A stretch of DNA of 64,000 bases from Candidatus Uhrbacteria bacterium. Its GTDB lineage: Bacteria > Patescibacteriota > Patescibacteriia > UBA9934. The notes under the pieces are model-generated. The model ran no database searches. It worked only from the letters and a program-made list of their open reading frames with translations, and was not told where the DNA came from. The translations under genes and the position numbers were made by a program. Shown one piece after another: positions 14,066 to 64,000 of this stretch. Position 1 is the stretch's first letter. The number at the start of each line of letters is the position of its first letter. Location of the stretch: positions 521 to 64,520 of the forward strand of contig CALRHV010000003.1 in assembly GCA_943359525.1 (NCBI GenBank). The letters are read 5' to 3'.

Positions 14066-14200
14066 GGGCAGAACTTCCTCATTTTGCCCATTTTCGACTC
14101 AAGTCATCAGAAACTTCTTCAACGTACGTTCGAGTACGTCTCAGAAGTTTCTTCGACTTTCATCGAAACTGGACGAAAATGAGAAAGTTCTGCAGACACA
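14066..14200. repeat. Copy A of a roughly 135-nt duplicated element (about 80% identical to 26076-26210) containing an imperfect palindrome; preceded by a decayed tRNA-Val-like remnant (about 13995-14065)
   Basis: Aligned by eye: ccattttcgactca...tcagaaa...tcaacgtac...gagtacg...ttcatcgaaactgg.cgaaaat...agttct shared by both copies. Confidence 0.5.
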
Positions 14201-25825: not shown

Positions 25826-25988
25826 AACGCGGATGAGGATGAATGAGAAGTGAGCTGAAATACAAAGCACCGTCATTTGTGACCAGTTTCGATGAACGAT
25901 GAGGAAATTTTGCGAGGCGTACTTCCTGGTACGGTGAGCAGAATTTCCGAAATCGTGAGTCGAAAATGGGCCAAATGCCGGTGCTTTG

Positions 25989-26065: not shown

Positions 26066-26075
26066 TGATAGTAGA

Positions 26076-26210
26076 ACTGCCTAATTTTGTCCATTTTCGA
26101 CTCACTCGTCAGAAATCTCCTCAACGTACATTTGAGTACGCCTCGTCGATTTCTTTCTCCTTCATCGAAACTGGCCGAAAATTAGACAGTTCTACAAACT
26201 CGTTCGATGA
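26076..26210. repeat. Copy B of the roughly 135-nt duplicated element (see 14066-14200), immediately 5' of tRNA-Val and upstream of the next + gene
   Basis: About 80% identity to copy A; internal palindrome GAAATC...CGTAC-atttga-GTACG...GATTTC. Confidence 0.5.
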
Positions 26211-29461: not shown

Positions 29462-29559
29462 GCAAGAGATGAAGGAAGTGTGAGGAACTAGCCTATCGGC
29501 TGTGGAGGTTATGGTCAAGGATTTTTGTGCATGACGTATGGGTATTCGCCCAACGTTGG

Positions 29560-29631
29560 CCAAAAACGATTCACGGCCCAGCTCCGAAGAGCCGAGCCGT
29601 GAGCGTGTAGCGCGTAGTGCGTGATGCCGAG
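29560..29631 (-). terminator. conserved 3' module 1 of 3: a 13-bp GC stem with UUCG tetraloop plus U-tract (CACGGCUCGGCUC-UUCG-GAGCUGGGCCGUG AAUCGUUUUU)
   Basis: Directly follows the paralog stop codon; about 85-90% identical to the modules at 30253-30321 and 30964-31032. Confidence 0.55.
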
Positions 29632-30192
29632 CTAGTCGCGAACGACGGTCCAGATGTTCGAGTTCGGATTGAGCGTGACGGTCATCGGCCTGTCGAGGAC
29701 GAAGGATTCGCCGTGGCCTTCCACGAGAATGTCGCCTTTTCGAACGAAGACCTTCCAGGCGCACCTGGCGTTGTTCAGTCGGTCGTCCGACAGGAGGATC
29801 TCTCGTCGCGCCGCCGGCGACACGTTGCCAGCGGGGAAGATGGTTCCGTTCCACGCAAGAGACGACGCGCGGTCGAACGCCTCGTGGATTTCCCTGATCC
29901 CATCGCTTCGATCGGGGTTGCCGAGCCGCCACTCCGCGAGCCACTGTAGCGCCTCGAACAGCGCGATGATCCCGTGGTCCGTGACGGTGTTCAGCTGAGC
30001 GAACGGGATGGTGTGGTAGGGAACAGCTTCGATGGTGCCGATACCGATGCTTCGGCGCAGAGCCTCGAGCTGTCCGAACGCGGCGACACGAAGTTCATGA
30101 TTCGGCCGATGGCTGTGTTCTCGGACGAACCGGCGCGTACGGTGGAAAGCCTCGTCGATGGATGTGAGAAGCGGGTCTCGCAAGCGGTTCAT
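29632..30192 (-). CDS. paralog 1 of a tandem 3-gene family of unknown function (about 187 aa, conserved 'GNVSPAA(R/Q)REI' and C-terminal 'NIW(T/D)VVRD')
   Basis: ORF track; aligns along its whole length with 30322-30885 and 31033-31596 at roughly 30% identity; GC-rich. Confidence 0.55.
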   Translation of the reverse strand: MNRLRDPLLTSIDEAFHRTRRFVREHSHRPNHELRVAAFGQLEALRRSIGIGTIEAVPYHTIPFAQLNTVTDHGIIALFEALQWLAEWRLGNPDRSDGIREIHEAFDRASSLAWNGTIFPAGNVSPAARREILLSDDRLNNARCAWKVFVRKGDILVEGHGESFVLDRPMTVTLNPNSNIWTVVRD

Positions 30193-30252
30193 GAGTGCCT
30201 CGGGGGAGTGTGTAGCGAAGAGATGATAGAAATTCCTTAATCAACCGTCAAT

Positions 30253-30321
30253 AAACGAATCACGGCCCAGCCCCAGAGGAGCCGAGCCGTGCGCGTGTGG
30301 CACGTAATGTGTAGTGCCGGG
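30253..30321 (-). terminator. conserved 3' module 2 of 3 (same stem-loop plus U-tract)
   Basis: See 29560-29631. Confidence 0.55.
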
Positions 30322-30885
30322 CTAGTCGCGAACGACGTCCCAGATCTGGTTCTCCTCATCGAACTGGACGTTCGGCGGGATGGGTGTGACTGCGACGTTG
30401 CCGTAGCCAGTCACCATGAATGTGGGGCTAATCGGGTCGTTGTCGAATCCTTCCGCGATCCACTTACCGCGACCTTCCGGGTTCCGGAAGATCGGCAACT
30501 TGTGAATCTCCCGTTGTGCAGCAGGAGAGGCGGTCCCGTCCGGGAAGATCAGGCTGTCGCCAAAGCCTTCGTCGCCGATCTCATTGAATGCGATCACCAC
30601 GCTGCGGTGTGTCACGAGGGTATTCTCCGCAAACCGCCACTCGGCGAGGAGCTGCGCGGCGTGGAAAAGCCGGTGTACTTCACGACCTGCCTCGAAGGCG
30701 TACATCCGCGATTTCACGACACGGTACGGAATCTCCGCCATGCCGTCCCATGTCATGTTGATGTTGAACAGGGCCTGAACCCAGTCGTCGATGTGATCGC
30801 CGGGGCCTGAACGATCGATCATCCGATGGATACGTTGGACGGCGTCGAGGTATGCCTTGCACATCGCGCGCGTTGGTAGTTTCAC
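30322..30885 (-). CDS. paralog 2 of the tandem family
   Basis: See 29632-30192. Confidence 0.55.
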   Translation of the reverse strand: MKLPTRAMCKAYLDAVQRIHRMIDRSGPGDHIDDWVQALFNINMTWDGMAEIPYRVVKSRMYAFEAGREVHRLFHAAQLLAEWRFAENTLVTHRSVVIAFNEIGDEGFGDSLIFPDGTASPAAQREIHKLPIFRNPEGRGKWIAEGFDNDPISPTFMVTGYGNVAVTPIPPNVQFDEENQIWDVVRD

Positions 30886-30963
30886 GATGGAAATCTCCGG
30901 GTTGAATGAGTGGATCCCGCAAAATACTAGCAGAATTCGCTATTTCTTTCAATACTTTTCCAA

Positions 30964-31032
30964 AAACGAATCACGGCCCAGCCCCAGAGGAGCCGAGCCG
31001 TGAGCGTACTGCACGTGGTGTGTGACACCGAA
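30964..31032 (-). terminator. conserved 3' module 3 of 3
   Basis: See 29560-29631. Confidence 0.55.
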
Positions 31033-31596
31033 CTAGTCGCGAACGATGTCCCAGACGTTCGTCTTCCGGTCGCAGCGGAAGACCGCCGGATCCAGTTCGA
31101 TGATTGCCGAGTTGCCTTCTCCGGTCACGTGGGCGGTGTAGCTCGTCGGATCCATGCCCTCCACGATCCAGTGCGCCGGGCTCCGAACACTGCCGAAGAT
31201 CGGCATCTTGCGGATTTCCCGCTGTGCCGCCGGGGAGACGTTGCCGTCCAGGAAGACCACGCTGTCCGCTGGGTCTTCATCGCCGACGTCATTGTATGCT
31301 GCGATCACATCGTGTTCCGTCACATCGGTTCCGGGCTGGCGCATGTACTCCGCCTGGAGTTGTGTTGCTTGGAAGAGACGCCAGATTTCGCGGCCAATGC
31401 CGAAGGGGAGCACTCGAGAATCCACGAGTCGGTATGGTATGACTGCCGGATTCTCGTACGCGAGGACAATCGTGCTCATCGCCGCGAGCGAGAACGAGGC
31501 ATTCTCGCTGCGATCTCCGTCGGGGAACTTCCGCTGAAGGCGTTCTACGGCATTCAAGAAGGAGAGGAGGATCGTGGGTGTCAGCATGCGTGCCAT
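31033..31596 (-). CDS. paralog 3 of the tandem family
   Basis: See 29632-30192. Confidence 0.55.
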   Translation of the reverse strand: MARMLTPTILLSFLNAVERLQRKFPDGDRSENASFSLAAMSTIVLAYENPAVIPYRLVDSRVLPFGIGREIWRLFQATQLQAEYMRQPGTDVTEHDVIAAYNDVGDEDPADSVVFLDGNVSPAAQREIRKMPIFGSVRSPAHWIVEGMDPTSYTAHVTGEGNSAIIELDPAVFRCDRKTNVWDIVRD

Positions 31597-40469: not shown

Positions 40470-40545
40470 TGGTGGACCGTATCGGGATCGAACCGATGAC
40501 CTTCTGACTGCCAGCCAGACGCTCTACCAGCTGAGCTAACGGCCC
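40470..40545 (-). tRNA. tRNA-Ala (anticodon GGC)
   Basis: Reverse complement folds with G3-U70 acceptor pair (Ala identity), anticodon loop CTGGCAG, T-arm ATCGG-TTCGATC-CCGAT. Confidence 0.85.
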
Positions 40546-40556
40546 TAAGGATGTCC

Positions 40557-40633
40557 TGGTGGACGCCGGGGGATTCGAACCCTCGACCCTCTCGGTGTAA
40601 ACGAGATGCTCTAACCAGCTGAGCTAGGCGTCC
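40557..40633 (-). tRNA. tRNA-Val (anticodon UAC)
   Basis: Reverse complement: acceptor GGACGCC/GGCGTCC, anticodon stem TCTCG/CGAGA with loop TTTACAC, T-arm GAGGG-TTCGAAT-CCCCC. Confidence 0.85.
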
Positions 40634-40727: not shown

Positions 40728-41420
40728 ATGGCAAAATCCACAATCTCTACACGATGGTCAAAAAAACTTGCATACGCAATTGGTCTTATTGTATCGGACG
40801 GAAATATGTCACCGGACGGCCGTCATGTGACTTTCACATCAAAAGATCTTGATCTTATTGAACAATTCCTTCGTGCGTTGAATATCGAAGGCTATCATGT
40901 CGGAAGAAAATCTCGCGGCCATGAACTCGAAAAGAAGTATTTTGTCGTACAGATTGGAGACGTTCGATTTTATCGTTTTTTATTGGGGATCGGCATCATG
41001 CAAAGAAAATCAAAAATCCTTCAAGAAATACAGATGCCAAAAAATCTTCTTCCCCATTTTGTTCGAGGCGTGTTTGATGGGGATGGAACATGCTACTCGT
41101 ATTATGATCCACGCTGGAAATCCAGCTTCATGGTATACACCGCTTTTGTATCTGCGAGTCCAATATTTCTTACGTGGCTACAAAAATACCTTGATGCTAC
41201 TTATGGTATTCAGGGCACAATCAGTGCCATGGTCAAACACGTCCAACAGCTCCGGTATGCGAAAAAGGCTTCGCGGAAACTTTTTTCTATAATGTATCGA
41301 AATGCCGATAATTTGTACCTTAAAAGAAAATACTTGAAATTATCAGAGGCGTTGGCTATACTCCCCTCGGTTCAAGAAAAGAATGCGCGAGTGGAGAAAT
41401 TGGTAAACTCGCCAGCTTGA
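40728..41420 (+). mobile_element. free-standing LAGLIDADG homing endonuclease gene (two LAGLIDADG motifs), AT-rich; last 12 codons run into tRNA-Leu
   Basis: 'LAYAIGLIVSDGNMS' and 'LLPHFVRGVFDGDGTC' double motifs; markedly lower GC than flanks; the reading frame continues 36 nt into the downstream tRNA before the stop. Confidence 0.65.
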
Positions 41421-41471
41421 GGGGCTGGTGCTAGCAATAGCTTGGAGGTTCGAGTCCTCTCTCGCGCACCA
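41385..41471 (+). tRNA. tRNA-Leu (anticodon GAG), type II
   Basis: Acceptor GCGCGAG/CTCGCGC, 3-bp D-stem GAG/CTC, anticodon stem CCAGC/GCTGG with loop TTGAGGG, 15-nt variable arm, T-arm GGAGG-TTCGAGT-CCTCT, CCA. Confidence 0.85.
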
Positions 41472-49666: not shown

Positions 49667-50620
49667 ATGCCAACCACACTCGAGCAATCGTTGTTTCGCC
49701 AGCTCGCGTACTTTGCCTATTTTCAGTTTCCACTCACGGCGCTTGAGCTTTGGAAATGGTCTGATGCACCGAACATCACAGTACTCGAGGTCGAGGAAGT
49801 ATTGCTGAATTCATCTTGGCTCCGGCTACAGGGATGCTCTTCGGATCAGGGTTTTTTCGCACTCGGCGACGCCGCCAAATGGAGATCTGAGCGTCTGTTT
49901 CGTGTGACCGACGCTCTTCGGAAGTCTCGTCAGACATCGCGTTTCGCAAAACTTGCGTCACGGCTGCCGTGGGTAAAGATGATTGCGGTGTGTAATTCGT
50001 TGGCATTTTCATTTACAAATCATGAAAGTGATATCGATCTCTTTGTTGTTACCGAGCGGGGAAAGATTTGGTCTACACGGCTGATTCTTGCCGGCGCACT
50101 TGCGTTGATGCGGGCACGGCCAGGCGAGCGAACGAAGGATCCGGTGTGTTTGAGTTTCTTCGTTGCTGATGATCGGCTCGACCTTTCCTCGGTGAAGATT
50201 GGATCGGAGGATCCGTATCTCATGTATTGGATTGCAACGCTTTCGCCACTGGTAGATCGAAGTGATGTTTTTGCAAGGCTCCGTGCCGCAAACGGCTGGA
50301 TGCGACCGGACATTCCTCGAGCGCAGGGCGTTTGTCGTGCCCAGGCTTACACGAATTGCACCGTTCGAACTCTTCCGAATATTTTTGGATTCGAGCGAGT
50401 TGCAGAACGAGTACAACGTGCGCGATTCCCCCTGATGCTTCGGAGAATGATGAACGCTGATACTCGCGTCGTTGTGACTGACAGCATGTTAAAATTTCAT
50501 CATAATGATCGTCGCCAAGATATCCTTGAGTCGTATGAAGCGCTTCTTTCCAAACTGGACGACGTTCTTCCTGTCCATCACGATCTTCCTCCTGCCGTGG
50601 CAAACGCGATGGATGTATAG
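49667..50620 (+). CDS. hypothetical protein, possible minimal nucleotidyltransferase fold
   Basis: 'NSLAFSFTNHESDIDLFVVTE' resembles the GS-x(n)-DxD nucleotidyltransferase motif. Confidence 0.35.
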   Translation: MPTTLEQSLFRQLAYFAYFQFPLTALELWKWSDAPNITVLEVEEVLLNSSWLRLQGCSSDQGFFALGDAAKWRSERLFRVTDALRKSRQTSRFAKLASRLPWVKMIAVCNSLAFSFTNHESDIDLFVVTERGKIWSTRLILAGALALMRARPGERTKDPVCLSFFVADDRLDLSSVKIGSEDPYLMYWIATLSPLVDRSDVFARLRAANGWMRPDIPRAQGVCRAQAYTNCTVRTLPNIFGFERVAERVQRARFPLMLRRMMNADTRVVVTDSMLKFHHNDRRQDILESYEALLSKLDDVLPVHHDLPPAVANAMDV

Positions 50621-51860
50621 CGAGGTTTCAATTGCCGGGGCACACACAGAGTTTGGTGTAATGAGTCTGTATGTCGTTGAATTGCTGCTCGCGGCCGCAC
50701 TCATTGGTGGAATCATTTTTGATCGAAAATGGTTGACGGTTGAAAGAAAGCGTCAATTACCGATTCGTTTTGGCGCGATTGTGCTCGTCGTTGCGATGCT
50801 CGGCACGGCATTTGCAGATCGCTCGCTTTTTTCGCTTTCCATGGCGACGCATCTCGCTTTTTCCTATGCGCTGTTTGTTGCGATTCTTATTGATCGTGTG
50901 AGCGCAAAGCATCTTCTCTTCGCATTCGTCGCATCGCTCATCGCGCCGCTGATACTTGGCATCATTCAGGTTTTCGGGGGAACTTCACCAGCAATCACCT
51001 GGCTTGGTGTTGCATTCCGAGACGCGGCACAGCTTGGTGACGCGGTGTTTACCGTTGGCGGTGAGCGTATGCTTCGCGCCTACGGAAGCTTCCCGCATCC
51101 AAACGTGTTTGGTGGATTCCTTGGCGTTGGATTGTTCGCGTGGTGGGGGACGATGGCGAGTGTTCGGCGAGAGTGGGGGAATCGAAGACAGAGTATCGTC
51201 ACAGGCGTCGGAACGATTATTCTCATCATCGGCATGCTTCTGACGGGTTCTCGATCCGCGTTTCTCGGGTTGTTCGTTGGGCTTGCGATTGTGTTTGTGG
51301 TGAAGTCAATCCCTTCGATGAAGATTGCTCGACCCACTGCAGCTGCGCTCGGCATTGTCGCGGTTCTCGGCTCGTTGTTCGCATCGTTTTATCTTACCGA
51401 CCTTGCCTCGAGTATTCGTGGTGGAGGAGTGAATGAAGAGCGATCGTTGGTTGAGCGCGTTGCGCTTTACGAAGACTTTGTGCCGTTTATGGCAGCAACG
51501 AATCCCGTTGTCGGTCACGGACTGGGTTCATATGTTTTGTCGTTTTCTGATTTTGAACCAGGAAAAAATGCCTTCGATTATCAGCCAATTCATAACGTGC
51601 CGCTGCTTATTTTTGCTGAGCTTGGTCTATTAGGGGTTCTCGCAATACTGTGTTGGGCTGCGAGCATTGATCGGATGAACTTTTCTCGATTCCCACATCG
51701 CGACGCGCTCTACGCCTTTGGCATGGGGAATGTGATTTTGATGATCTTTTTCTTTGATCATTATCTCTGGTCGTCTTGGTCCGGGCTTTCACTCATCGCG
51801 TTTGTGATGGGGATGACGGTGCGGTTGGGGGAGGAGAAGGAGGCGAGGGGACCGAACTGA
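50613..51860 (+). CDS. O-antigen ligase/polymerase-like (Wzy_C) polytopic membrane protein
   Basis: About 10 TM helices, periplasmic loop 'GSRSAFLGLFVGLAI'; start uncertain (50505/50535/50613); 50613 gives an 8-nt overlap. Confidence 0.55.
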   Translation: MYSEVSIAGAHTEFGVMSLYVVELLLAAALIGGIIFDRKWLTVERKRQLPIRFGAIVLVVAMLGTAFADRSLFSLSMATHLAFSYALFVAILIDRVSAKHLLFAFVASLIAPLILGIIQVFGGTSPAITWLGVAFRDAAQLGDAVFTVGGERMLRAYGSFPHPNVFGGFLGVGLFAWWGTMASVRREWGNRRQSIVTGVGTIILIIGMLLTGSRSAFLGLFVGLAIVFVVKSIPSMKIARPTAAALGIVAVLGSLFASFYLTDLASSIRGGGVNEERSLVERVALYEDFVPFMAATNPVVGHGLGSYVLSFSDFEPGKNAFDYQPIHNVPLLIFAELGLLGVLAILCWAASIDRMNFSRFPHRDALYAFGMGNVILMIFFFDHYLWSSWSGLSLIAFVMGMTVRLGEEKEARGPN

Positions 51861-51887
51861 ATCTTTGAATGGGTTGGGTTGAGCTAT

Positions 51888-51962
51888 AAAACCCTCCCCC
51901 TGCCAAGGCGCTCGACGAACCTGAGTTGGGTGAGGAGAGTGAGTAGGAGGGGGTCTGAGCCT
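51888..51962. repeat. left arm of a roughly 75-bp inverted repeat pair (partner at 52244-52325)
   Basis: The reverse complement aligns to the right arm at about 80% identity (tcagaccccctcc...cactctcctc...cgtcgagcgccttgg.agggggaggg). Confidence 0.5.
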
Positions 51963-52243
51963 TTGATGGGATTGGGACGAGACGAATCCGGAGAGTCCGA
52001 GGTACTGTGACAGAAAACGATACCCTCTTTTTTGAGGGTTTTAAAACGTGGCAACAAAATCCATTGAGAAATTGAAATCGATGAAAAGTGAAATCGATCT
52101 CAGAAATGCATCCTCATCGATCGTGGGCAGCATTATCGCCGGCCTCGGAGATTGTCAGAATCGACCGGTGTTTTCTTGCTGCGAATCATTCGCATTACCA
52201 AAACACCCTATTTAAAATCGAATACCTCGAGCTCGCCGATGAG

Positions 52244-52325
52244 GCCCAAAAGTCAGACCCCCTCCACCCACTCTCCTCGTCCGGCTCGGGACTCGTCGAG
52301 CGCCTTGGTAGGGGGAGGGCCTTTT
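52244..52325. repeat. right arm of the inverted repeat, about 120 nt upstream of groES
   Basis: See left arm. Confidence 0.5.
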
Positions 52326-52443
52326 CCGCCTCATCACAACCCCCTCAAAGATCAGGCATTTTTCCTTCGGGAAAGCAAGATTTATTGTTATTTCTCTAGA
52401 AATCTCGTAAGCTTACGCACGTTAAGATTTCACATTTTTCTCT

Positions 52444-52728
52444 ATGCAACTTCGCCCACTCGGAGGTCATATCATTGTTGAGCCACAGGAAAGAGAAACA
52501 AAAACAGCGTCGGGAATTTATCTTCCGGATGCGGGTGAAAAGCGTCAGGGTCAGGGAGTTGTCATTGCTATCGGTCCAGGAAAGATCGAGAAAGGCGAGC
52601 GACAGCCAGTGGAGGTAAAGGTTGGTGATGTCGTCGTGTTCAAGCAATACGCGCCAGACGAAGTCAAGCTCGAGAGCAAAACATTTCTGATTGTTTCCGT
52701 AGATGACGTCACTGCAGTTATCGAATAA
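52444..52728 (+). CDS. groES: co-chaperonin GroES
   Basis: 'LRPLGGHIIVEP...SGIYLPD...GVVIAIGPG' canonical GroES. Confidence 0.9.
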   Translation: MQLRPLGGHIIVEPQERETKTASGIYLPDAGEKRQGQGVVIAIGPGKIEKGERQPVEVKVGDVVVFKQYAPDEVKLESKTFLIVSVDDVTAVIE

Positions 52729-52732
52729 TTCT

Positions 52733-54355
52733 ATGGCAAAGACTATTGTTTTTAGCGATGACGCACGGAAGAAAATGAAGGACGGTGTTGATCAGCTTGC
52801 GAGCGCAGTGAAAGTGACCATGGGCCCGCGTGGACGAACGGTGATTATCGATCGCGGTTTTGGTTCGCCAATGGTGACGAAGGATGGTGTGTCGGTGGCG
52901 AAGGAAATCGAACTTGCCGATAAACTCGAAAATCTCGGCGCAACGCTCGTGAAGGAAGCAGCGAGCAAAACAAATGATGTTGCCGGCGACGGAACAACAA
53001 CGGCCGTTGTTCTTGCGCAGTCGATCGTTTCCGAGGGATTGCGTGTGGTTTCGGCTGGCGTAAACTCGCAAGCGCTTCGCCGGGGAATCGAAAAAGGTGT
53101 TGAGGCGATTGTAAAAAAGATTGCAGAGATCTCAACGCCAGTTCACGGGAACGCTATCGAACAGGTTGCATCGATTTCAGCGAACGATCCAGAAATCGGC
53201 AAGATGATTGCAGAGGCGATGAAGAAGGTGAGCGAGAACGGCGTCATCACCGTCGAAGAGGGTCAGTCATTCGGAATCGAAGTTGATGTGGTCGAGGGCA
53301 TGCAATTCGACAAGGGCTACGTTTCGCCATACATGGTAACGAATTCCGAGCGCATGGAGGCGGTGTATAACGATGTTCCGGTGCTCGTGACAAGCGAAAA
53401 AATCAGCAGCATGCAATTGCTGATGCCGATTTTGGAAAAGCTTCTTGCAACAGGCCGAAAGGATCTCGTCATCATCGCGGAAGACGTTGAAGGCGAAGCA
53501 ATGACTGCGCTTGTGCTCAATAAGCTCCGTGGTGCGTTGAACGTGTTGGCAATCAAAGCACCAGCATACGGCGATCGTCGGAAGGCGATGCTTGAAGATA
53601 TCGCGATCGTCACTGGCGCAAAGTTCATCTCGCCAGAGACGGGAATGAAATTTGAAACGCTCGAGCTTGCCGATCTTGGTCATGCACGTCGCGTGATTTC
53701 CACGAAAGACACCACGACGATCGTGGAAGGCGCTGGTGATAAGGCTGCAATCGCGGATCGTGTCGTCAATATTAAGGCACAGCTTGAGAACTCGGATTCG
53801 GATTTTGACAAAGAAAAGTTCCGCGAACGCATGGCAAAGATTTCCGGTGGAGTTGCTGTCATCAAGGTCGGCGCAGCGAGCGAGGTGGAGATGAAAGAGA
53901 AGAAACATCGTATCGAGGATGCCGTTGCTGCAACAAAAGCAGCCATCGAAGAGGGAATCGTTGCTGGTGGTGGTGTGGCGTTGATTCGTGCGAAGGCTGT
54001 GCTTGCCGATCTCGTTGTGAGTGCTGATGAAAAGATTGGTATCGACATTTTGAGCCGCGCGGTTGAGTCGCCGCTTCGTCAGATTGCGGAGAATGCTGGT
54101 CACGAAGGCGGTGTTATCGTTGAACGCGTAAAGACGATGACGGGAAACAACGGATGGGATGCTGCTCTGGATAAAGACGTGGATATGGTGGAAGTCGGCA
54201 TCATTGACCCGGCGAAAGTGACGCGCTCTGCGCTTCAGAACGCGGCGTCGGTTGCGGTGATGATCCTCACGACTGAAGCAGCGATCACCGAGGTTCCGAA
54301 ATCGGAGAAAGAGAGTTCGGCGGGAGCTGGGGGAGGAATGGGAGACATGTACTAG
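52733..54355 (+). CDS. groEL: chaperonin GroEL
   Basis: 'MAKTIVFSDDARKKM...TMGPRGRTVIID...AGDGTTTA' and C-terminal GGM repeat 'GGGMGDMY'; start at the internal MAKTIVF. Confidence 0.95.
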   Translation: MAKTIVFSDDARKKMKDGVDQLASAVKVTMGPRGRTVIIDRGFGSPMVTKDGVSVAKEIELADKLENLGATLVKEAASKTNDVAGDGTTTAVVLAQSIVSEGLRVVSAGVNSQALRRGIEKGVEAIVKKIAEISTPVHGNAIEQVASISANDPEIGKMIAEAMKKVSENGVITVEEGQSFGIEVDVVEGMQFDKGYVSPYMVTNSERMEAVYNDVPVLVTSEKISSMQLLMPILEKLLATGRKDLVIIAEDVEGEAMTALVLNKLRGALNVLAIKAPAYGDRRKAMLEDIAIVTGAKFISPETGMKFETLELADLGHARRVISTKDTTTIVEGAGDKAAIADRVVNIKAQLENSDSDFDKEKFRERMAKISGGVAVIKVGAASEVEMKEKKHRIEDAVAATKAAIEEGIVAGGGVALIRAKAVLADLVVSADEKIGIDILSRAVESPLRQIAENAGHEGGVIVERVKTMTGNNGWDAALDKDVDMVEVGIIDPAKVTRSALQNAASVAVMILTTEAAITEVPKSEKESSAGAGGGMGDMY

Positions 54356-58660: not shown

Positions 58661-58861
58661 ACTTGATTGCCGCGTCGGGATTACCCTCCTCGCAATGACG
58701 GAGGCTCTGAACACATCCGTGTTCCTGTGTATACACGGGAAGTGTTCACCCCCTATCGATGATATACTTTACGAAGCGACAAGGGCTTTCTCATTTGAGA
58801 CTATTTTCGATGAACAAGGAACAAAGTTCGCGAGACGTACTTCTCGGTACGACGAGCGAAT

Positions 58862-59653
58862 TTGCGACGCAGTGAGTCGAAAAGAGGCCAAATGAGGAAG
58901 ACCGCGATATTGCGTATGGCGGAGGGAGAAAGAATCATCATCACGCGAAAAAAAGCCGTCCTGAACCGCGAACAAAAAACGGGGTTGGGTATGGTGGTCG
59001 GCTTTGGGTCGCTTGCACTCGTTTTTGGAGTGTTTTTCCTGTGGAAGCACATTGCTTCCCCATTTGTGATTTCGTACGTTGGTCCGAAGTTTCTCACTGG
59101 CGACGAAAAGGAACAGCAAGAAATGGAAACGCTCAAGAAGCAGGATACAGATGCCGATGGTCTCGATGACTACAGCGAGCTGTACATTTACAAGACGAGC
59201 CCGTACCTCAAGGATTCCGATAGCGACGGCGCGGAGGACAAAACGGAGATTTCTCAAGGTGAAGATCCAAATTGTGCACCAAACATGCCTTGCGCAACAG
59301 CCGCAGCAGATACGGTGAACCCGGAAACACTTAAAGGTACTTTCGCGGAACAGATTGCAGCAGAGGCTGGAGCAACGCCAGCTCCTGAGGCGCCAGCAAC
59401 ATCGGTGGATATTCAGGCTACGCTCGCAGCAATGACGACAGACCAAATCCGAACATTGCTCATTCAGGCCGGTGGCGACACAGCGGTGATCAATGCACTT
59501 TCCGACGACGATCTTCGTGCGGCATTAGCACAGGCCATTACACAGATGCAGGTTGAGGATGCGGCAACTGCTGACGCTTCGGCTTCTGCTGGGTCTGCAC
59601 CATCGGACACCGCAGATACAACGGAAGATTCCACTCAAACCACACAGGAATAG
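58862..59653 (+). CDS. membrane-anchored protein with thrombospondin-type-3-like DxDxDG calcium-binding repeats and Ala/Thr/Asp-rich tail
   Basis: TM 'GMVVGFGSLALVFGVFFLW'; 'DTDADGLDDYSE' and 'DSDSDGAEDKTE'. Confidence 0.45.
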   Translation: MRRSESKRGQMRKTAILRMAEGERIIITRKKAVLNREQKTGLGMVVGFGSLALVFGVFFLWKHIASPFVISYVGPKFLTGDEKEQQEMETLKKQDTDADGLDDYSELYIYKTSPYLKDSDSDGAEDKTEISQGEDPNCAPNMPCATAAADTVNPETLKGTFAEQIAAEAGATPAPEAPATSVDIQATLAAMTTDQIRTLLIQAGGDTAVINALSDDDLRAALAQAITQMQVEDAATADASASAGSAPSDTADTTEDSTQTTQE

Positions 59654-59656
59654 CGT

Positions 59657-62600
59657 ATGAAGGATCGCTTTCGAAAATTTGGTGCCACGGCGTTGCTCAT
59701 GCTCGCGACGTTTACGTTTTCGTCTGCAGCCTTGTTTACGCCAAAAACAGCATACGCAGTGCCAACAGAAATTGTTGGCGATGCTCCGCGTATTACGGAA
59801 TGGATTTTGAGCGCACTGAAGTATCTTGGCCAAACCGCATTGATCGCTTCTGTTTCTACTGCGATGATTAATACCGTGACGTACGCCACGGACCGTTTAG
59901 CATACGACGCCGCGGTATACATTGCCGCGGGTGGCAATGGAGAGGATCCGTTGTTTGATAATCGCACTGCGGGTGATTATTTCGCCGACTACGGCGCATC
60001 CGTCGCCGGAGAAGCACTCGGCGCCATTGACGACACGGGAATCCTTGGAAACTTTAGTTTGTGTGAACCAAGCGCTTCTGGTGTAACGCTCGCATTCAAA
60101 TTTGGTATTCAGAGCGCGTTTAGTCGGCCGGAGCCAGAGTGTAAATGGAACGAAGTCTCAGAAAACTGGGGAGGCTTTCTCAGTAGTGTTGCATCCATGG
60201 CGGAGGATCCTTTTGGAAAGAACTCTCTCATCACTGCAAAGCTTGCGGACATGTATAACCCAAAGTCCAGCGATCTTTCGGTTGGTATTCAGTTGTATAG
60301 CGATGTACTGAACAAGGCACGTACTGATGCGGCAAATAATACGTTGCGCGAAATGTTCAGTGGATTCTTTAAATCGAAGACGAATTTCATTACGGGAAAA
60401 GTTGAAACACCGGCGGAACTTATCCAGAAACGATTGGACGCAACAATGATGGCTTCCGACAGTATCCGGAATCAGATTGCCGTACAGGCACTCGGCGACA
60501 AGGAAGTGTTGCTGCAAATCGCGAAACACGCCGGATCTGTTTTTACAAACACGCTGCTCTCAAAGGTGACGGAAAAGTTGTATGACGGTTTGTTTGGCGG
60601 GCTTGATCAGACGGCTATCGACCCGTTCAATATTGACGGTGTTGGAACGAGCAATTCGGAAGACGCACGTCAGTCGTTCCGAAGTTTCTTAACCGCCGTA
60701 CCGCTGTCTGTAGAAAATTACAGTCAGCTCCAGGAATTTAGCGCGTGTCCGTCGCAGGGGAAGAGTTTGTATAACTGTGTTGCGGATTCGTCTTTGGTTT
60801 CTGCGGTGAGCCGTGCGGATTCCGGTATTCCCATGACTGTTGCTGAGGCCATTGAGGAGGGATTGTTGAATGGTTCGTGGCCGCTCATTTCATCAGCGGA
60901 CAGCGCCAGGGATCAGGATCAATTCTGCTACACGTACGGATATTGTCATGGAAACCTGGTGAAACTCAGGAAGGCTCGTATCATTTCTACAGGATGGGAA
61001 CTGGCAGCAGAATCGAATGCGAATAGCGAGAACAGTCCGGTTACACTTGGTGAAGTGGTAAGCGCATTTAATGACTGTAACGATCAGGGCGAACTGGACG
61101 ACAATCATCCGTGGTGTCACTTGATTGATCCAAACTGGGTGCTGAAGTATCCGGAAACACAATGCAAGGCGTTGGTGTACGGCGAACAGCTTGTTGCGTC
61201 GGTGACCGATGAGCGCCAGGATATTTGTGTAGACATGCCGAGCTGTATTGATGAGGACGGCGACGGAAACTGTACTGGTGGATACGGCTACTGTGTTCGC
61301 GAGGAAAACGTGTGGCGTTTCCGCGGAGAAGAATGTCCGGACTATTACGCATCGTGTACCACATACGAAGATCCAAATGGGGAAAACTTCGATTTCCTTT
61401 CGAACACCACAAATTCCGACAACTGTACCGCGGATTCCGTGGGGTGTTTGTGGTATGCAACGCAGAAGGAAGATGATGATTTTGTGGCTGTCGCAGACAC
61501 AGCAGACGACATCTATAAAAATCGCATCTACTTCACGTCGGAAGTCGCGGACTGTGAATCGGACGACGCCGGATGTAAGGAGTTGGTTTCTCGCACAGAC
61601 GGTGTGACGCTCAACATGATTGGTAATCCATCATTTGAGGACGATACAGACGATGACGGTGTTCCAGATGGATGGGTTGTTACAGGAACAAGCGGGGAAT
61701 ACAGCACCGACTCGTCGGTGATGCTCGACGGATCCGATGCGGTGAATCCTGGAAGCGGAAACAGTTATTCCCAGCAGGGCATTGTGTTGTCGCAGGGTGC
61801 GGAGTACACGTTGTCATTTTATGCGGCGCAATCCTCAAGCGGCGCAACAACTGGTGCATGGATCGCTCTTAATACAAATGTTGCTGAAACAGTTGATTTC
61901 GGTGGCTTCGCCATTGACGGCGACTGCGCGATGTACTCCAACACCAACGAGCTCGGATTCCTCACAAGCGCGCCAACAGGCACCGACTATGAGCGCTATT
62001 CCTGTACGTTTACTGTTCCGGTGCTTTCCGATACTGGTGCAGAAATCACTGCAACCGTTTTGGTGACGGCCTCCGATCTTTGGTACGACGAGATGCAGCT
62101 TGAACAAGAATCGTCTGCGTCGGAATATCACGAAGGCTACAGTAGTACCACGCTCGACTTGGCATATGTGAAGGTTGCGCCGGCGTACCTTGGTTGTACT
62201 GGCGACAGTACAACCGACGCCGCGAACTGTGCGGACTACGCCACGATGTGTTCGGAAACCGACGTTGGATGCTCGCTCTACACACCAACAAACGGGGATC
62301 CTTCTGTTGCCGGAATTACCGACAGCCTTGATGTATGTCCAGAGTCGTGTGTGGGATACGACACGTTTAAGCAGGAGGCAACGCTCTACGAACCGGACGG
62401 TGATTTCCCAATCTATTTCATTCCAGATACCGCCGAAGCATGTTCGGCACAGGCGGTTGGTTGCGACGAATTTACTGACATCACAACGGAAGCCGCGTCG
62501 TACTTTACGAATCTCCGTGCATGTTTGACGGGCGATCAAGCCGACCTTAATGCCGCAGGAGAAGATCAGGCTGCCGTATTTTATACATGGGAAGGGTCGG

Positions 62601-64000
62601 ACACCGATGGATATCAGCTCAAAACTTGGAATTTGGTGGAGTCGGACATAAGTTCAGTTTATGCTCCGTTGGCGTATTCGGGTAGCGGAGAGGACGACGA
62701 CGCGCCACAGTCTGCGCCATGTACACGTTGGTCGGCGACGGCAACGGGAATTACGTGTAACGACGACTCGGTGACTGCTGGAAAGCTTGATTCTGATAGC
62801 GAGTATTGCGACGAGCACGACGACACCATTACCAATCCGGACTGCCGCGAATTCTACGACGCAAGCGGAATTATTCACTACCGATCGTGGTCGAAAACGA
62901 TTACGGTGAGCAATTCGTGTGTGACGTATCGAAAAACAAGTATTGTTGGAGCCGATGCCACAACGCAAGAAGCGAACTGCACTGGATCTGGTGGATATTA
63001 CGATTCAAGCACCGCAGAATGTCGCTACTACGGATTTACCAATGAAAGCACGACGTGTTCGGAAAGCGAATCTGGATGTCGCGAATACACCGGAGGACGA
63101 AGCCGTAACAGCCGCCAAGCGCTCACGGAATACTTCGAGGATGGCGATCTCACAAACTGGGACGCGGCGAGCGCAACAGACGTCACGCTTTCAAATGAGT
63201 CGATTGCAACAGACGGACACTCGTTGTCTTCGGTTGGTGAATCGGTCTGGACGTATGTTGGAGCGCAAGCAGCAACAGCAGTATGTGCGGAATCGGTTAC
63301 CGATGCAGGATGTGCGAGCGTTGACGGATCACTTGGCGGAAGCTGCACTATCAGTAATGGTGAATATTATTGCGGTACGTTGAACGAGGAGCTCTTTGCC
63401 GATAAAACATATACGATCTCGTTCTGGGCAAAGGGAACGGGAGCACTCATGGTTGGATTCGATACGGCGGTTGAAATCAATGCTGTCGGGAATGGCACTG
63501 GCGCTGTCGACGCATCATTCTTTGCAACAGCCATCGAACTCGATACGGACTGGAACGAATACTCGTACGGACCGCTGGACATGAATAGCACAACGTATCC
63601 AAGCTTCGGCGGCGGATCGTCCGCACTCGTCTTTACGCCTGGATCGTCGAGTGACACTTTCTTTATCGACAATGTGGTGCTTCGCGAGGGTGAAGACAAT
63701 ATCGATGTCATTAAAGATTCTTGGGTAACGCCAGCGGCATGCGACGAAACTGCGGAGGGCACGTCGTCGCCGCAATACATGCTTGGTTGTCAGGAATACA
63801 CAGATCAGAATGGCGACGTGTCCAATCTGAAGAGCTTCAGTTCGCTATGTGAGGAATCCCAAGTTGGGTGTTCCGCGTACTTCCTTACGCAAGAATCCGA
63901 CGCAACAACTGCGGCGGTGTACGGCGGATACTGCAGCACGATTGACGGCGCAGTAGCGACGTCGGCAACGGCGTGTTACTACGCGCTCGATAGTGCTGAA
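59657..64000 (+). CDS. giant Cys-rich secreted protein (>1,440 aa), 3'-truncated by the window end
   Basis: I translated this frame by hand from the ATG at 59657 to the window end without meeting a stop; the track lists no + ORF here because no stop exists inside the window; signal peptide 'ALLMLATFTFSSAALFTPKTAYA'; dozens of Cys; acidic DxD clusters. Confidence 0.6.
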   Translation, partial: MKDRFRKFGATALLMLATFTFSSAALFTPKTAYAVPTEIVGDAPRITEWILSALKYLGQTALIASVSTAMINTVTYATDRLAYDAAVYIAAGGNGEDPLFDNRTAGDYFADYGASVAGEALGAIDDTGILGNFSLCEPSASGVTLAFKFGIQSAFSRPEPECKWNEVSENWGGFLSSVASMAEDPFGKNSLITAKLADMYNPKSSDLSVGIQLYSDVLNKARTDAANNTLREMFSGFFKSKTNFITGKVETPAELIQKRLDATMMASDSIRNQIAVQALGDKEVLLQIAKHAGSVFTNTLLSKVTEKLYDGLFGGLDQTAIDPFNIDGVGTSNSEDARQSFRSFLTAVPLSVENYSQLQEFSACPSQGKSLYNCVADSSLVSAVSRADSGIPMTVAEAIEEGLLNGSWPLISSADSARDQDQFCYTYGYCHGNLVKLRKARIISTGWELAAESNANSENSPVTLGEVVSAFNDCNDQGELDDNHPWCHLIDPNWVLKYPETQCKALVYGEQLVASVTDERQDICVDMPSCIDEDGDGNCTGGYGYCVREENVWRFRGEECPDYYASCTTYEDPNGENFDFLSNTTNSDNCTADSVGCLWYATQKEDDDFVAVADTADDIYKNRIYFTSEVADCESDDAGCKELVSRTDGVTLNMIGNPSFEDDTDDDGVPDGWVVTGTSGEYSTDSSVMLDGSDAVNPGSGNSYSQQGIVLSQGAEYTLSFYAAQSSSGATTGAWIALNTNVAETVDFGGFAIDGDCAMYSNTNELGFLTSAPTGTDYERYSCTFTVPVLSDTGAEITATVLVTASDLWYDEMQLEQESSASEYHEGYSSTTLDLAYVKVAPAYLGCTGDSTTDAANCADYATMCSETDVGCSLYTPTNGDPSVAGITDSLDVCPESCVGYDTFKQEATLYEPDGDFPIYFIPDTAEACSAQAVGCDEFTDITTEAASYFTNLRACLTGDQADLNAAGEDQAAVFYTWEGSDTDGYQLKTWNLVESDISSVYAPLAYSGSGEDDDAPQSAPCTRWSATATGITCNDDSVTAGKLDSDSEYCDEHDDTITNPDCREFYDASGIIHYRSWSKTITVSNSCVTYRKTSIVGADATTQEANCTGSGGYYDSSTAECRYYGFTNESTTCSESESGCREYTGGRSRNSRQALTEYFEDGDLTNWDAASATDVTLSNESIATDGHSLSSVGESVWTYVGAQAATAVCAESVTDAGCASVDGSLGGSCTISNGEYYCGTLNEELFADKTYTISFWAKGTGALMVGFDTAVEINAVGNGTGAVDASFFATAIELDTDWNEYSYGPLDMNSTTYPSFGGGSSALVFTPGSSSDTFFIDNVVLREGEDNIDVIKDSWVTPAACDETAEGTSSPQYMLGCQEYTDQNGDVSNLKSFSSLCEESQVGCSAYFLTQESDATTAAVYGGYCSTIDGAVATSATACYYALDSAE

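Follow-up and report, generated by a model that had tools for sequence, protein, structure and literature searches.

A long inverted repeat upstream of groESL in a Candidatus Uhrbacteria genome: possible lineage-specific expansion of local sequence around an older non-coding cassette

What is the long inverted repeat that precedes the chaperonin genes groES and groEL (groESL) in the genome of a Candidatus Uhrbacteria bacterium, and from which sequences did it arise? The repeat is located in a 64-kb stretch of DNA, referred to in the following as the window, that spans positions 521-64,520 of the forward strand of contig CALRHV010000003.1 (assembly GCA_943359525.1). According to a protein search, the closest named relatives of its GroEL protein belong to the Patescibacteria, namely to Candidatus Uhrbacteria, and the genome is a metagenome-assembled genome (MAG) of the Patescibacteria (candidate phyla radiation; CPR). 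A previous sequence-only reading of this region had described a pair of approximately 75-bp inverted repeats with about 80% identity that enclose 285 bp immediately upstream of groES, and had offered three explanations: an insertion resembling a miniature inverted-repeat transposable element (MITE), an invertible promoter segment, or a long-stem structured RNA in the groESL leader. The explanation that we favor, with a confidence that is about even, is a different one: the repeat would be a locally generated, lineage-specific palindrome expansion on an older, single-copy and recombinogenic non-coding cassette that occupies a variable slot before the groESL promoter.

The inverted repeat is real, and it is longer than had been described. 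Gapped local alignment, in accord with a repeat scan, places the left arm at 51857-51965 and the right arm at 52247-52355, each comprising 109 nt, with 89 of the 106 aligned positions identical. The score of this alignment is 100, with a maximum of 25 among 200 shuffles, and the whole segment folds far below shuffled sequences on both strands (z = -10.8 and -10.9). The distance between the arms measures 281 nt instead of 285 bp, and the sequences AAAACCCTCCCC / GGGGAGGGCCTTTT that had been given as arm boundaries are present on reading the sequence. The position upstream of groES is likewise correct, but the right arm ends 88 nt short of the groES ATG (52444) and hence not immediately at the gene. 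Matches to the core of the repeat in the window are limited to the two arms, with 0 expected by chance, and a repeat scan of the 64 kb detected no other long local inverted repeat, pairs at tRNA genes excepted. The 601-nt region is 100% identical in assembly GCA_964685005.1 and in the Logan assembly of ERR5863119, both of which stem from the same strain; the repeat is therefore not an assembly artefact.

The composition of the arms points to their source. The left arm sets in at the CTGA in which the upstream gene, a member of the Wzy_C family, has its stop codon, and begins with an outer terminal repeat, CTGAATCTTTGAATGGGTTGGGTTGAG (51857-51883), that pairs with 52330-52355 and is of the same kind as the end repeats bounding the corresponding cassettes of sister species described below. 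An AAAA and the GC-rich core CCCTCCCCCTGCCAAGGCGCTCGACGA (27 nt; 51892-51918) follow; the core is 96% complementary to 52293-52319 in the repeat scan and is accompanied by further repeat blocks on each side. Positions 51925-51976 (+ strand) are a direct duplicate of 51824-51878 (84% in the repeat scan; 43 of 49 positions identical in aligned blocks), a source segment that consists of the final Wzy_C codons and the left terminal repeat. As a result of this make-up, a second, inner copy of the left end repeat is present at 51955-51981, and it is this copy that aligns best with the left end of the cassettes in congeneric species. In the right arm, sequence resembling the Wzy_C 3' end is found as an inverted copy at about 52253-52290, within which 52259-52278 is complementary to the 3' end of the gene itself at 51831-51850; the core (52293-52319), a CCTTTT and the outer right terminal repeat (52330-52355) complete this arm. 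Because the arms are in part copies of the 3' end of the neighboring gene, they represent local rather than imported sequence.

A protein search with GroEL yielded a graded set of close relatives, the contigs of which were then fetched; their loci and contigs carry L-numbers in the following. The groEL genes of these relatives are 80-86% identical to that of the window at the nucleotide level and differ at 44-58% of the four-fold degenerate sites, and we therefore regard them as separate species of one genus-level group. The order Wzy_C gene, spacer, groES and groEL is conserved among them. In four congeneric species (L086-088, L089, L090 and L103; groEL 80-85% identical to that of the window), the same slot harbors a homologous, single-copy non-coding cassette of 305-353 bp, whose counterpart in the window is the interior of the inverted repeat (281 nt; 51966-52246; nhmmer E-values of 1e-72 to 5e-89). 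Terminal repeats of 19-36 bp with the consensus CTGATTCTTTGATGGGTTGGGACG bound the cassette in three of these four congeners (25/29 matching positions in L086, 30/35 in L089 and 18/19 in L090) and hence in four of the five species possessing the cassette; alignment revealed no significant terminal repeat in L103, where only a degenerate end pairing could be read by eye. The additional stretch of about 80 bp per arm is seen in the window alone among the five cassette species. Since the congeners carry only short terminal repeats or none, the long arms are lineage-specific. The two arms differ from each other at 16% of their positions, a smaller divergence than that between the species at four-fold sites, which fits an origin of the arms after speciation. 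Collectively, these comparisons show that the ancestral cassette had a length of about 300-350 bp with short terminal repeats (19-36 bp), and that these repeats grew in the lineage of the window to about 109 bp per arm by addition of sequence that includes copies of the 3' end of the upstream gene.

The slot before groESL is variable in its contents. In L092, L093/094, L100 and L101/102, a small gene on the - strand that encodes a protein of 153-167 amino acids (L092, 2088-2591; L093, 1912-2373; L100, 2089-2592; L101, 2107-2610) is present in place of the cassette. Its product, a two-helix membrane protein, has a coiled-coil tail that is acidic, contains acidic repeats of the DVDEIQED type and matches DUF1003/DUF948 weakly. 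A gene with a Bro-N domain (Pfam) occupies the slot on the + strand of L097 (1784-2632), a more distant species. Each of the two subclades that emerge from groEL identity contains the small gene as well as the non-coding cassette, a distribution that suggests repeated replacement or exchange. The possibility that the cassette is a decayed pseudogene of the small membrane-protein gene was rejected, as tblastn and blastn revealed no similarity between the two. A GroEL-anchored scan of GTDB species genomes returned just distant relatives (at most 68% identity), none of them with the cassette, and none of nine loci at greater distance, mostly from Patescibacteria, has a comparable inverted repeat 5' of groES. 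Three public contigs break at or near the spacer: L003 ends 35 nt before groES, L088 starts 51 nt inside the cassette, and L104 starts at a GC-rich clamp hairpin described below. A mixture of strains that differ in the contents of the slot might explain such breaks, as might low coverage.

The interior of the cassette has evolved under moderate constraint, in conserved blocks, as judged from its comparison with groEL. Its interspecies alignment scores amount to 18-96, in comparison with 2-3 for shuffled sequences, and its effective substitution, obtained from simulation-calibrated scores, is approximately 0.30-0.48, which is below the 0.44-0.58 of the groEL four-fold sites in the same species pairs. 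Consistent with the earlier statement that no plausible open reading frame (ORF) lies inside, fragments of the interior match between species alike in all six frames, so that no conserved ORF is apparent, and the substitutions lack a 3-base periodicity (p = 0.95); a hidden small ORF was rejected on these same grounds. Regulatory DNA and an unstructured small RNA are candidates for the role of the cassette. The hairpin ACCCTC-TTTTTT-GAGGGT noted previously is indeed present at 52022-52039, followed by TTTAAAAC, and is terminator-like on the - strand; relatives retain it with other stem bases (CCTC/GAGG, ACCT/AGGT and GTC/GAC). An internal palindrome detected by the repeat scan at 52167-52207 contains the inner hairpin GCGAAT-C-ATTCGC (52181-52193), which is likewise kept in relatives through two-sided changes (GCAAC...GTTGC), the pairs at alignment columns 266/274 and 268/272 being changed on both sides in two of the five sequences. 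A promoter scan indicated a promoter-like site facing groES, TTCGCA-18-TAAAAT (52189-52218, + strand). The four congeners do not share this site: in the aligned sequence, they have G or C at position 2 of the -10 hexamer. The repeat scan also revealed a direct repeat of AAAtTGAAATCGAT, the two copies of which stand 16 nt apart (52069-52098, + strand; 93%). Motifs of the ATCGA / GATCG type recur throughout the interior, at 52069-52098 (TGAAATCGAT twice, 16 nt apart), 52113-52122, 52156-52163 and 52213-52220, and also in the cassettes of congeners, for instance in L086 and L090, which both have the palindrome TACGATCGCCGATCGTA; a role in protein binding or as methylation sites is conceivable for them. 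A further candidate, pairing of the interior motif AAAAGTGAAATC with the groES 5' region GATTTCACATTT as a translational trap, was dismissed: it is not conserved in the congeners and is incompatible with the inverted cassette of L089.

This inversion deserves a closer look. In L089, the cassette is reversed relative to the Wzy_C gene and groES, and k-mer matches are collinear only in the reverse direction; the alignment score is 163 in reverse versus 70 in forward orientation, and for the interiors of L089 and the window alone it is 69 versus 8. The cassette profile accordingly matches L089 on the opposite strand (E = 3e-80). The inversion is real, because the imperfect end repeats of L089, with about 36 nt, are too short for current assemblers to mis-orient the segment. 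At least one sister species has hence undergone a recombination event between the end repeats that turned the entire cassette around. The left repeat and the right repeat of the window, and likewise those of L086 and of L089, are closer to each other than to the same-side repeat of other species, a likeness that would follow from exchange between the repeats. An analysis of end types did not discriminate the inversion breakpoints. Within strains and species, only one orientation is represented in the consensus assemblies: all three from the window strain agree with one another, as do all three from L086.

The region between the right arm and groES contains the sole promoter-like site that is conserved across the congeners (TTGCTA/TTGTTA-N17-TAxxxT); it lies outside the cassette, downstream of the right arm, and overlaps the position of the Controlling Inverted Repeat of Chaperone Expression (CIRCE). 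In L086, L090, L103 and L092, it reads TTGCTA-N17-TAACAT/TACCAT/TACTAT and is situated 59-60 nt 5' of the ATG. The corresponding predicted groES core promoter of the window is TTGTTA-N17-TAAGCT (52385-52413, + strand), which with 7 of 12 consensus positions falls below the threshold of the scan; its spacer holds the palindrome ATTTCT-CT-AGAAAT. A CIRCE of the form TAGCA[CG]TC-N9-GA[CT]TGCTAA is present directly 5' of groES in eight congeners (for example at L086 2635-2660, L090 2454-2479, L092 2646-2671, L093 2426-2451, L100 2647-2672, L101 2642-2667 and L103 2435-2460), and L089 and L104 lack it. The earlier observation that no canonical CIRCE precedes groES in the window is borne out: no TTAGCACTC-N9-GAGTGCTAA was found in the whole window with up to three mismatches. 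The inverted repeat shares with this HrcA operator the location just 5' of groES, but it is far larger and bears no sequence resemblance to TTAGCACTC-N9-GAGTGCTAA. A Pfam scan of about 65 window ORFs, comprising most of those with at least 150 codons, identified no member of the HrcA family and likewise no site-specific recombinase or transposase. The three loci lacking CIRCE (the window, L089 and L104) have the -10-like hexamer TAAGCT in common, and L089 carries the GC hairpin TTTCCCCCTTTGAAAGGGGGAGGG at the place of CIRCE, the counterpart of which in the window is the region 52356-52443.

The outer end of the core corresponds in L089 and L104 to a GC clamp, CCCCCTT-N3-AAGGGGGAG, which folds locally into a compact hairpin adjoining the right end repeat on its inner side; in L089, this hairpin is terminator-like. 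In the window, the right half of the clamp is found at the same place as in these two relatives, and its partner is located far to the left, at a distance of about 374-400 nt. The arrangement AAAA-CCCTCCCCCT...AGGGGGAGGG-CCTTTT thereby resembles a bidirectional intrinsic terminator, such as the compact hairpin of the sister species would be; unlike in intrinsic terminators, the halves of the clamp are 374 nt apart in the window, the T-tract comprises just four T, and termination at this site is a prediction.

These findings lend themselves to the following model for the origin of the long arms. In a first step, the 3' end of the Wzy_C gene together with the left repeat would have been duplicated directly on the left side of the cassette. 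The left side would then have been copied in inverted orientation onto the right, either by a template switch or by gene conversion between the repeats. The clamp halves CCCTCCCCCT / AGGGGGAGGG, which in sister species would pair with each other as a compact, terminator-like hairpin shortly 5' of the groES promoter, would have become separated in this process in the window, bounded by AAAA and TTTT. The groESL operon would be transcribed from its own predicted promoter 3' of the right arm, a region from which CIRCE was presumably lost in the lineage of the window. Quasipalindrome template switching and inverted duplication are known from Escherichia coli genetics as processes by which an imperfect inverted repeat lengthens through copying the flank of one arm to the other side. 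The extension of an imperfect repeat with local sequence is common to these events and to the model proposed here. Most of the cases known so far involve short stretches (tens of bp), whereas about 80 bp per arm would have been added here around a 281-nt spacer, in an event that we infer. The arms themselves are most likely tolerated DNA; at most, and purely by inference, they might form a hairpin over a long range and thereby serve as a barrier that shields groESL against transcription reading through from the upstream operon.

Several observations weigh against this model. Five species do not fix a unique order of the duplication events, and the search for further copies in the source genome covers the 64 kb of the window. 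The promoter site of the window itself is weak (7 of 12), and a loop of 281 nt sets the stem apart from canonical intrinsic terminators. Furthermore, the interior evolves more slowly than four-fold sites, which points to a function that the explanation favored by us does not name.

Alternative explanations have to be measured against the same data. Bacterial MITEs and related palindromic repeats (the Correia/NEMIS elements of Neisseria, ERIC and RUP) are, like the cassette, non-coding and intergenic, are bounded by terminal inverted repeats, and fold into long hairpins. If the cassette were the relic of a MITE or of an internally deleted transposon, with the short end repeats as its terminal inverted repeats and a single insertion in the ancestor of the genus, it would be understandable that it forms a discrete non-coding unit between terminal repeats, that it is either complete or missing altogether in comparison with congeners possessing a gene instead, that it is found in both orientations, and that its slot can also hold a phage-type Bro-N gene (L097). 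Yet, the cassette differs from MITEs in being single-copy wherever it was searched for. Its profile detected the orthologous locus only, and no further copy, both in the window and throughout 885 kb of DNA that included the flanks of the relatives. The 21-mer of the arm core had two chance matches in metagenome contigs of JGI, both to the same unrelated coding sequence, and no match in IMG/VR, two conserved cassette motifs were met at 12 loci of IMG/VR, none of which matched the cassette profile, and a blastn search of the cassette against phage and plasmid collections gave no match. The cassette is also orthologous, at the same position, in five species; no direct repeat that might represent a target-site duplication is evident beside the terminal repeats, whose ends overlap the stop codon and whose boundaries are imprecise; the long arms of the window hold copies of the 3' end of the adjacent chromosomal gene; and no transposase is encoded among the window ORFs screened. 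We therefore consider the MITE-like insertion proposed by the sequence-only reading, and a mobile-element origin in general, to be very improbable. An invertible DNA switch (inverton), in which a site-specific recombinase encoded elsewhere would flip the cassette between its end repeats and thereby alter transcription into groESL or antisense into the Wzy_C gene, has somewhat more to recommend it, and is still unlikely in our estimation. The anatomy of the locus resembles that of fimS of E. coli, of the capsular-polysaccharide promoters of Bacteroides and of PhaseFinder elements, as it comprises an intergenic, non-coding segment of about 300 bp within inverted repeats, adjoins a surface-polysaccharide gene, and is found in both orientations among relatives. 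The likeness of left and right repeats in the window, L086 and L089 is what repeated exchange would give, the interior is moderately constrained, and a promoter-like site faces groES in the window. This site is not conserved in the congeners, although consensus scans are weak evidence for CPR promoters, and groES has its own conserved promoter-like site outside the segment. The arms of about 109 bp exceed the 10-40 bp usual for invertons, and the orientations differ between species, whereas the three window-strain and three L086 assemblies each show a single one. Rare homologous recombination would suffice to explain one inversion among five species that differ at about 45-58% of their four-fold sites. 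The screen of window ORFs brought no invertase to light; the gene for such an enzyme can lie far from its target. Of the earlier proposal of an invertible promoter segment, the inversion is supported at the evolutionary scale, through the sister species L089, and a conserved internal promoter is not.

The third alternative, an RNA element, would have the cassette transcribed either as 3' untranslated region of the Wzy_C gene or from a promoter of its own into a small or structured RNA, in which the arms form a double-stranded stem, for example as a target of RNase III. Read-through on the + strand is likely, as the cassette begins at the stop codon without a preceding terminator; the interior is more conserved than four-fold sites, and two short hairpins (52022-52039 and 52181-52193) stay paired through two-sided compensating changes, although they are the only ones to do so. 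Folding of the interior (z-scores from mononucleotide shuffles) is favorable in the window and in L086 (-3 to -4), but lies at about 0 to -1.6 in L089, L090 and L103. The RNAalifold covariation term is unfavorable on both strands (+2.7 and +2.4 kcal/mol) with weak consensus energies, in a test whose power is low with five sequences. No sigma-70-type internal promoter or terminator is common to the five species, so that no conserved promoter or clear terminator delimits a transcript, and the inversion in L089 would switch the strand present in any read-through RNA. At the gathering threshold, Rfam found tRNAs only in the whole window, and it gave no credible match over 51700-52500 at E-values up to 10 or in the four congener loci at E-values up to 5. 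Counted from the alignment, seven of the arm mismatches are G-U compatible on the + strand, four on the - strand and about six on neither, the latter including transversions that break pairing on both strands; the attempt to choose a strand from the numbers of seven and four was given up as uninformative. A long-stem RNA in the groESL leader, as envisaged initially, is further disfavored by the conserved promoter-like site downstream of the right arm, and the cassette is probably not part of the groES transcript. Taken together, we judge an RNA element to be improbable, at a level slightly below that of the programmed switch. A more ambitious combination of these ideas, to which we give marginally less credence again, would see in the cassette a functional DNA switch, or else a gene for a small RNA that works in either orientation, peculiar to this genus of Patescibacteria. 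It would be flipped via its end repeats, would be swapped as an alternative allele with a small membrane-protein gene, and would couple the expression of surface glycan or chaperonin functions to its orientation.

The genes in the neighborhood of the repeat are arranged in the order LPG_synthase_TM, a 317-amino acid protein without a family match, the Wzy_C gene, the repeat, groES and groEL. The Wzy_C / O-antigen-ligase family gene (Pfam PF04932, E = 1.7e-17) extends on the + strand from 50505 to 51860; these coordinates refer to the longest ORF, and public gene calls (L001, L002) start later and yield 415 amino acids. Both chaperonin genes are encoded on the + strand as well: groES (52444-52728; 94 amino acids; Pfam Cpn10, E = 1.2e-27) and groEL (52733-54355; 540 amino acids; Pfam Cpn60_TCP1, E = 7.5e-67), the latter with homologues found by protein search. 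Elsewhere in the window, an ORF with a LAGLIDADG_3 match (40728-41420, + strand; E = 1.6e-9) lies amid tRNA genes at 40470-40633 and 41385-41471, its 3' end overlapping tRNA-Leu(gag) at the start of the latter; this ORF may represent a homing-endonuclease-like gene that stands free. A unit of about 700 nt is repeated three times in tandem at 29558-31089 (66-76% identical), each unit holding an ORF of 186-187 amino acids on the - strand without a Pfam match. A single ORF of at least 1449 codons occupies 59654-64000 (+ strand) and continues past the end of the window, which accounts for the apparent absence of listed ORFs there; it is likely a gene for a giant protein. A non-coding repeat family is represented by four copies of 60-130 nt, at 14070-14197 (+), 26073-26199 (+), 25873-25977 (-) and 58858-58900 (-), with the core CATTTTGCCCATTTTCGACTCA ... 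CGTAC-N-GTACG.CTC. Two of its copies stand in inverted orientation around tRNA-Val(gac), and every copy is situated 5' of an ORF on the same strand. This family has no match in Rfam and could constitute a common promoter or leader, or a small repeat element.

If the cassette were indeed a working switch, then the arms of 109 bp would be adaptive by raising the rate of flipping. None of the papers searched brings Patescibacteria together with invertible DNA and inverted repeats, and the phylum goes unmentioned in the DeepInverton paper. Under the explanation that we favor, that of a palindrome expanded from local sequence, the meaning of the locus is more modest: it provides an example of a long near-palindrome that grows from neighboring sequence in a streamlined CPR genome. 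It also draws attention to a rearrangement-prone slot 5' of groESL, in which sister species carry the cassette, a gene for a small membrane protein or a Bro-N gene, and the presumed loss of CIRCE in the lineage of the window raises the question of how groESL is controlled there. With such switches not described for the Patescibacteria in the literature searched, the moderately conserved and once-inverted cassette is a reasonable target for a study of DNA inversion in these bacteria.

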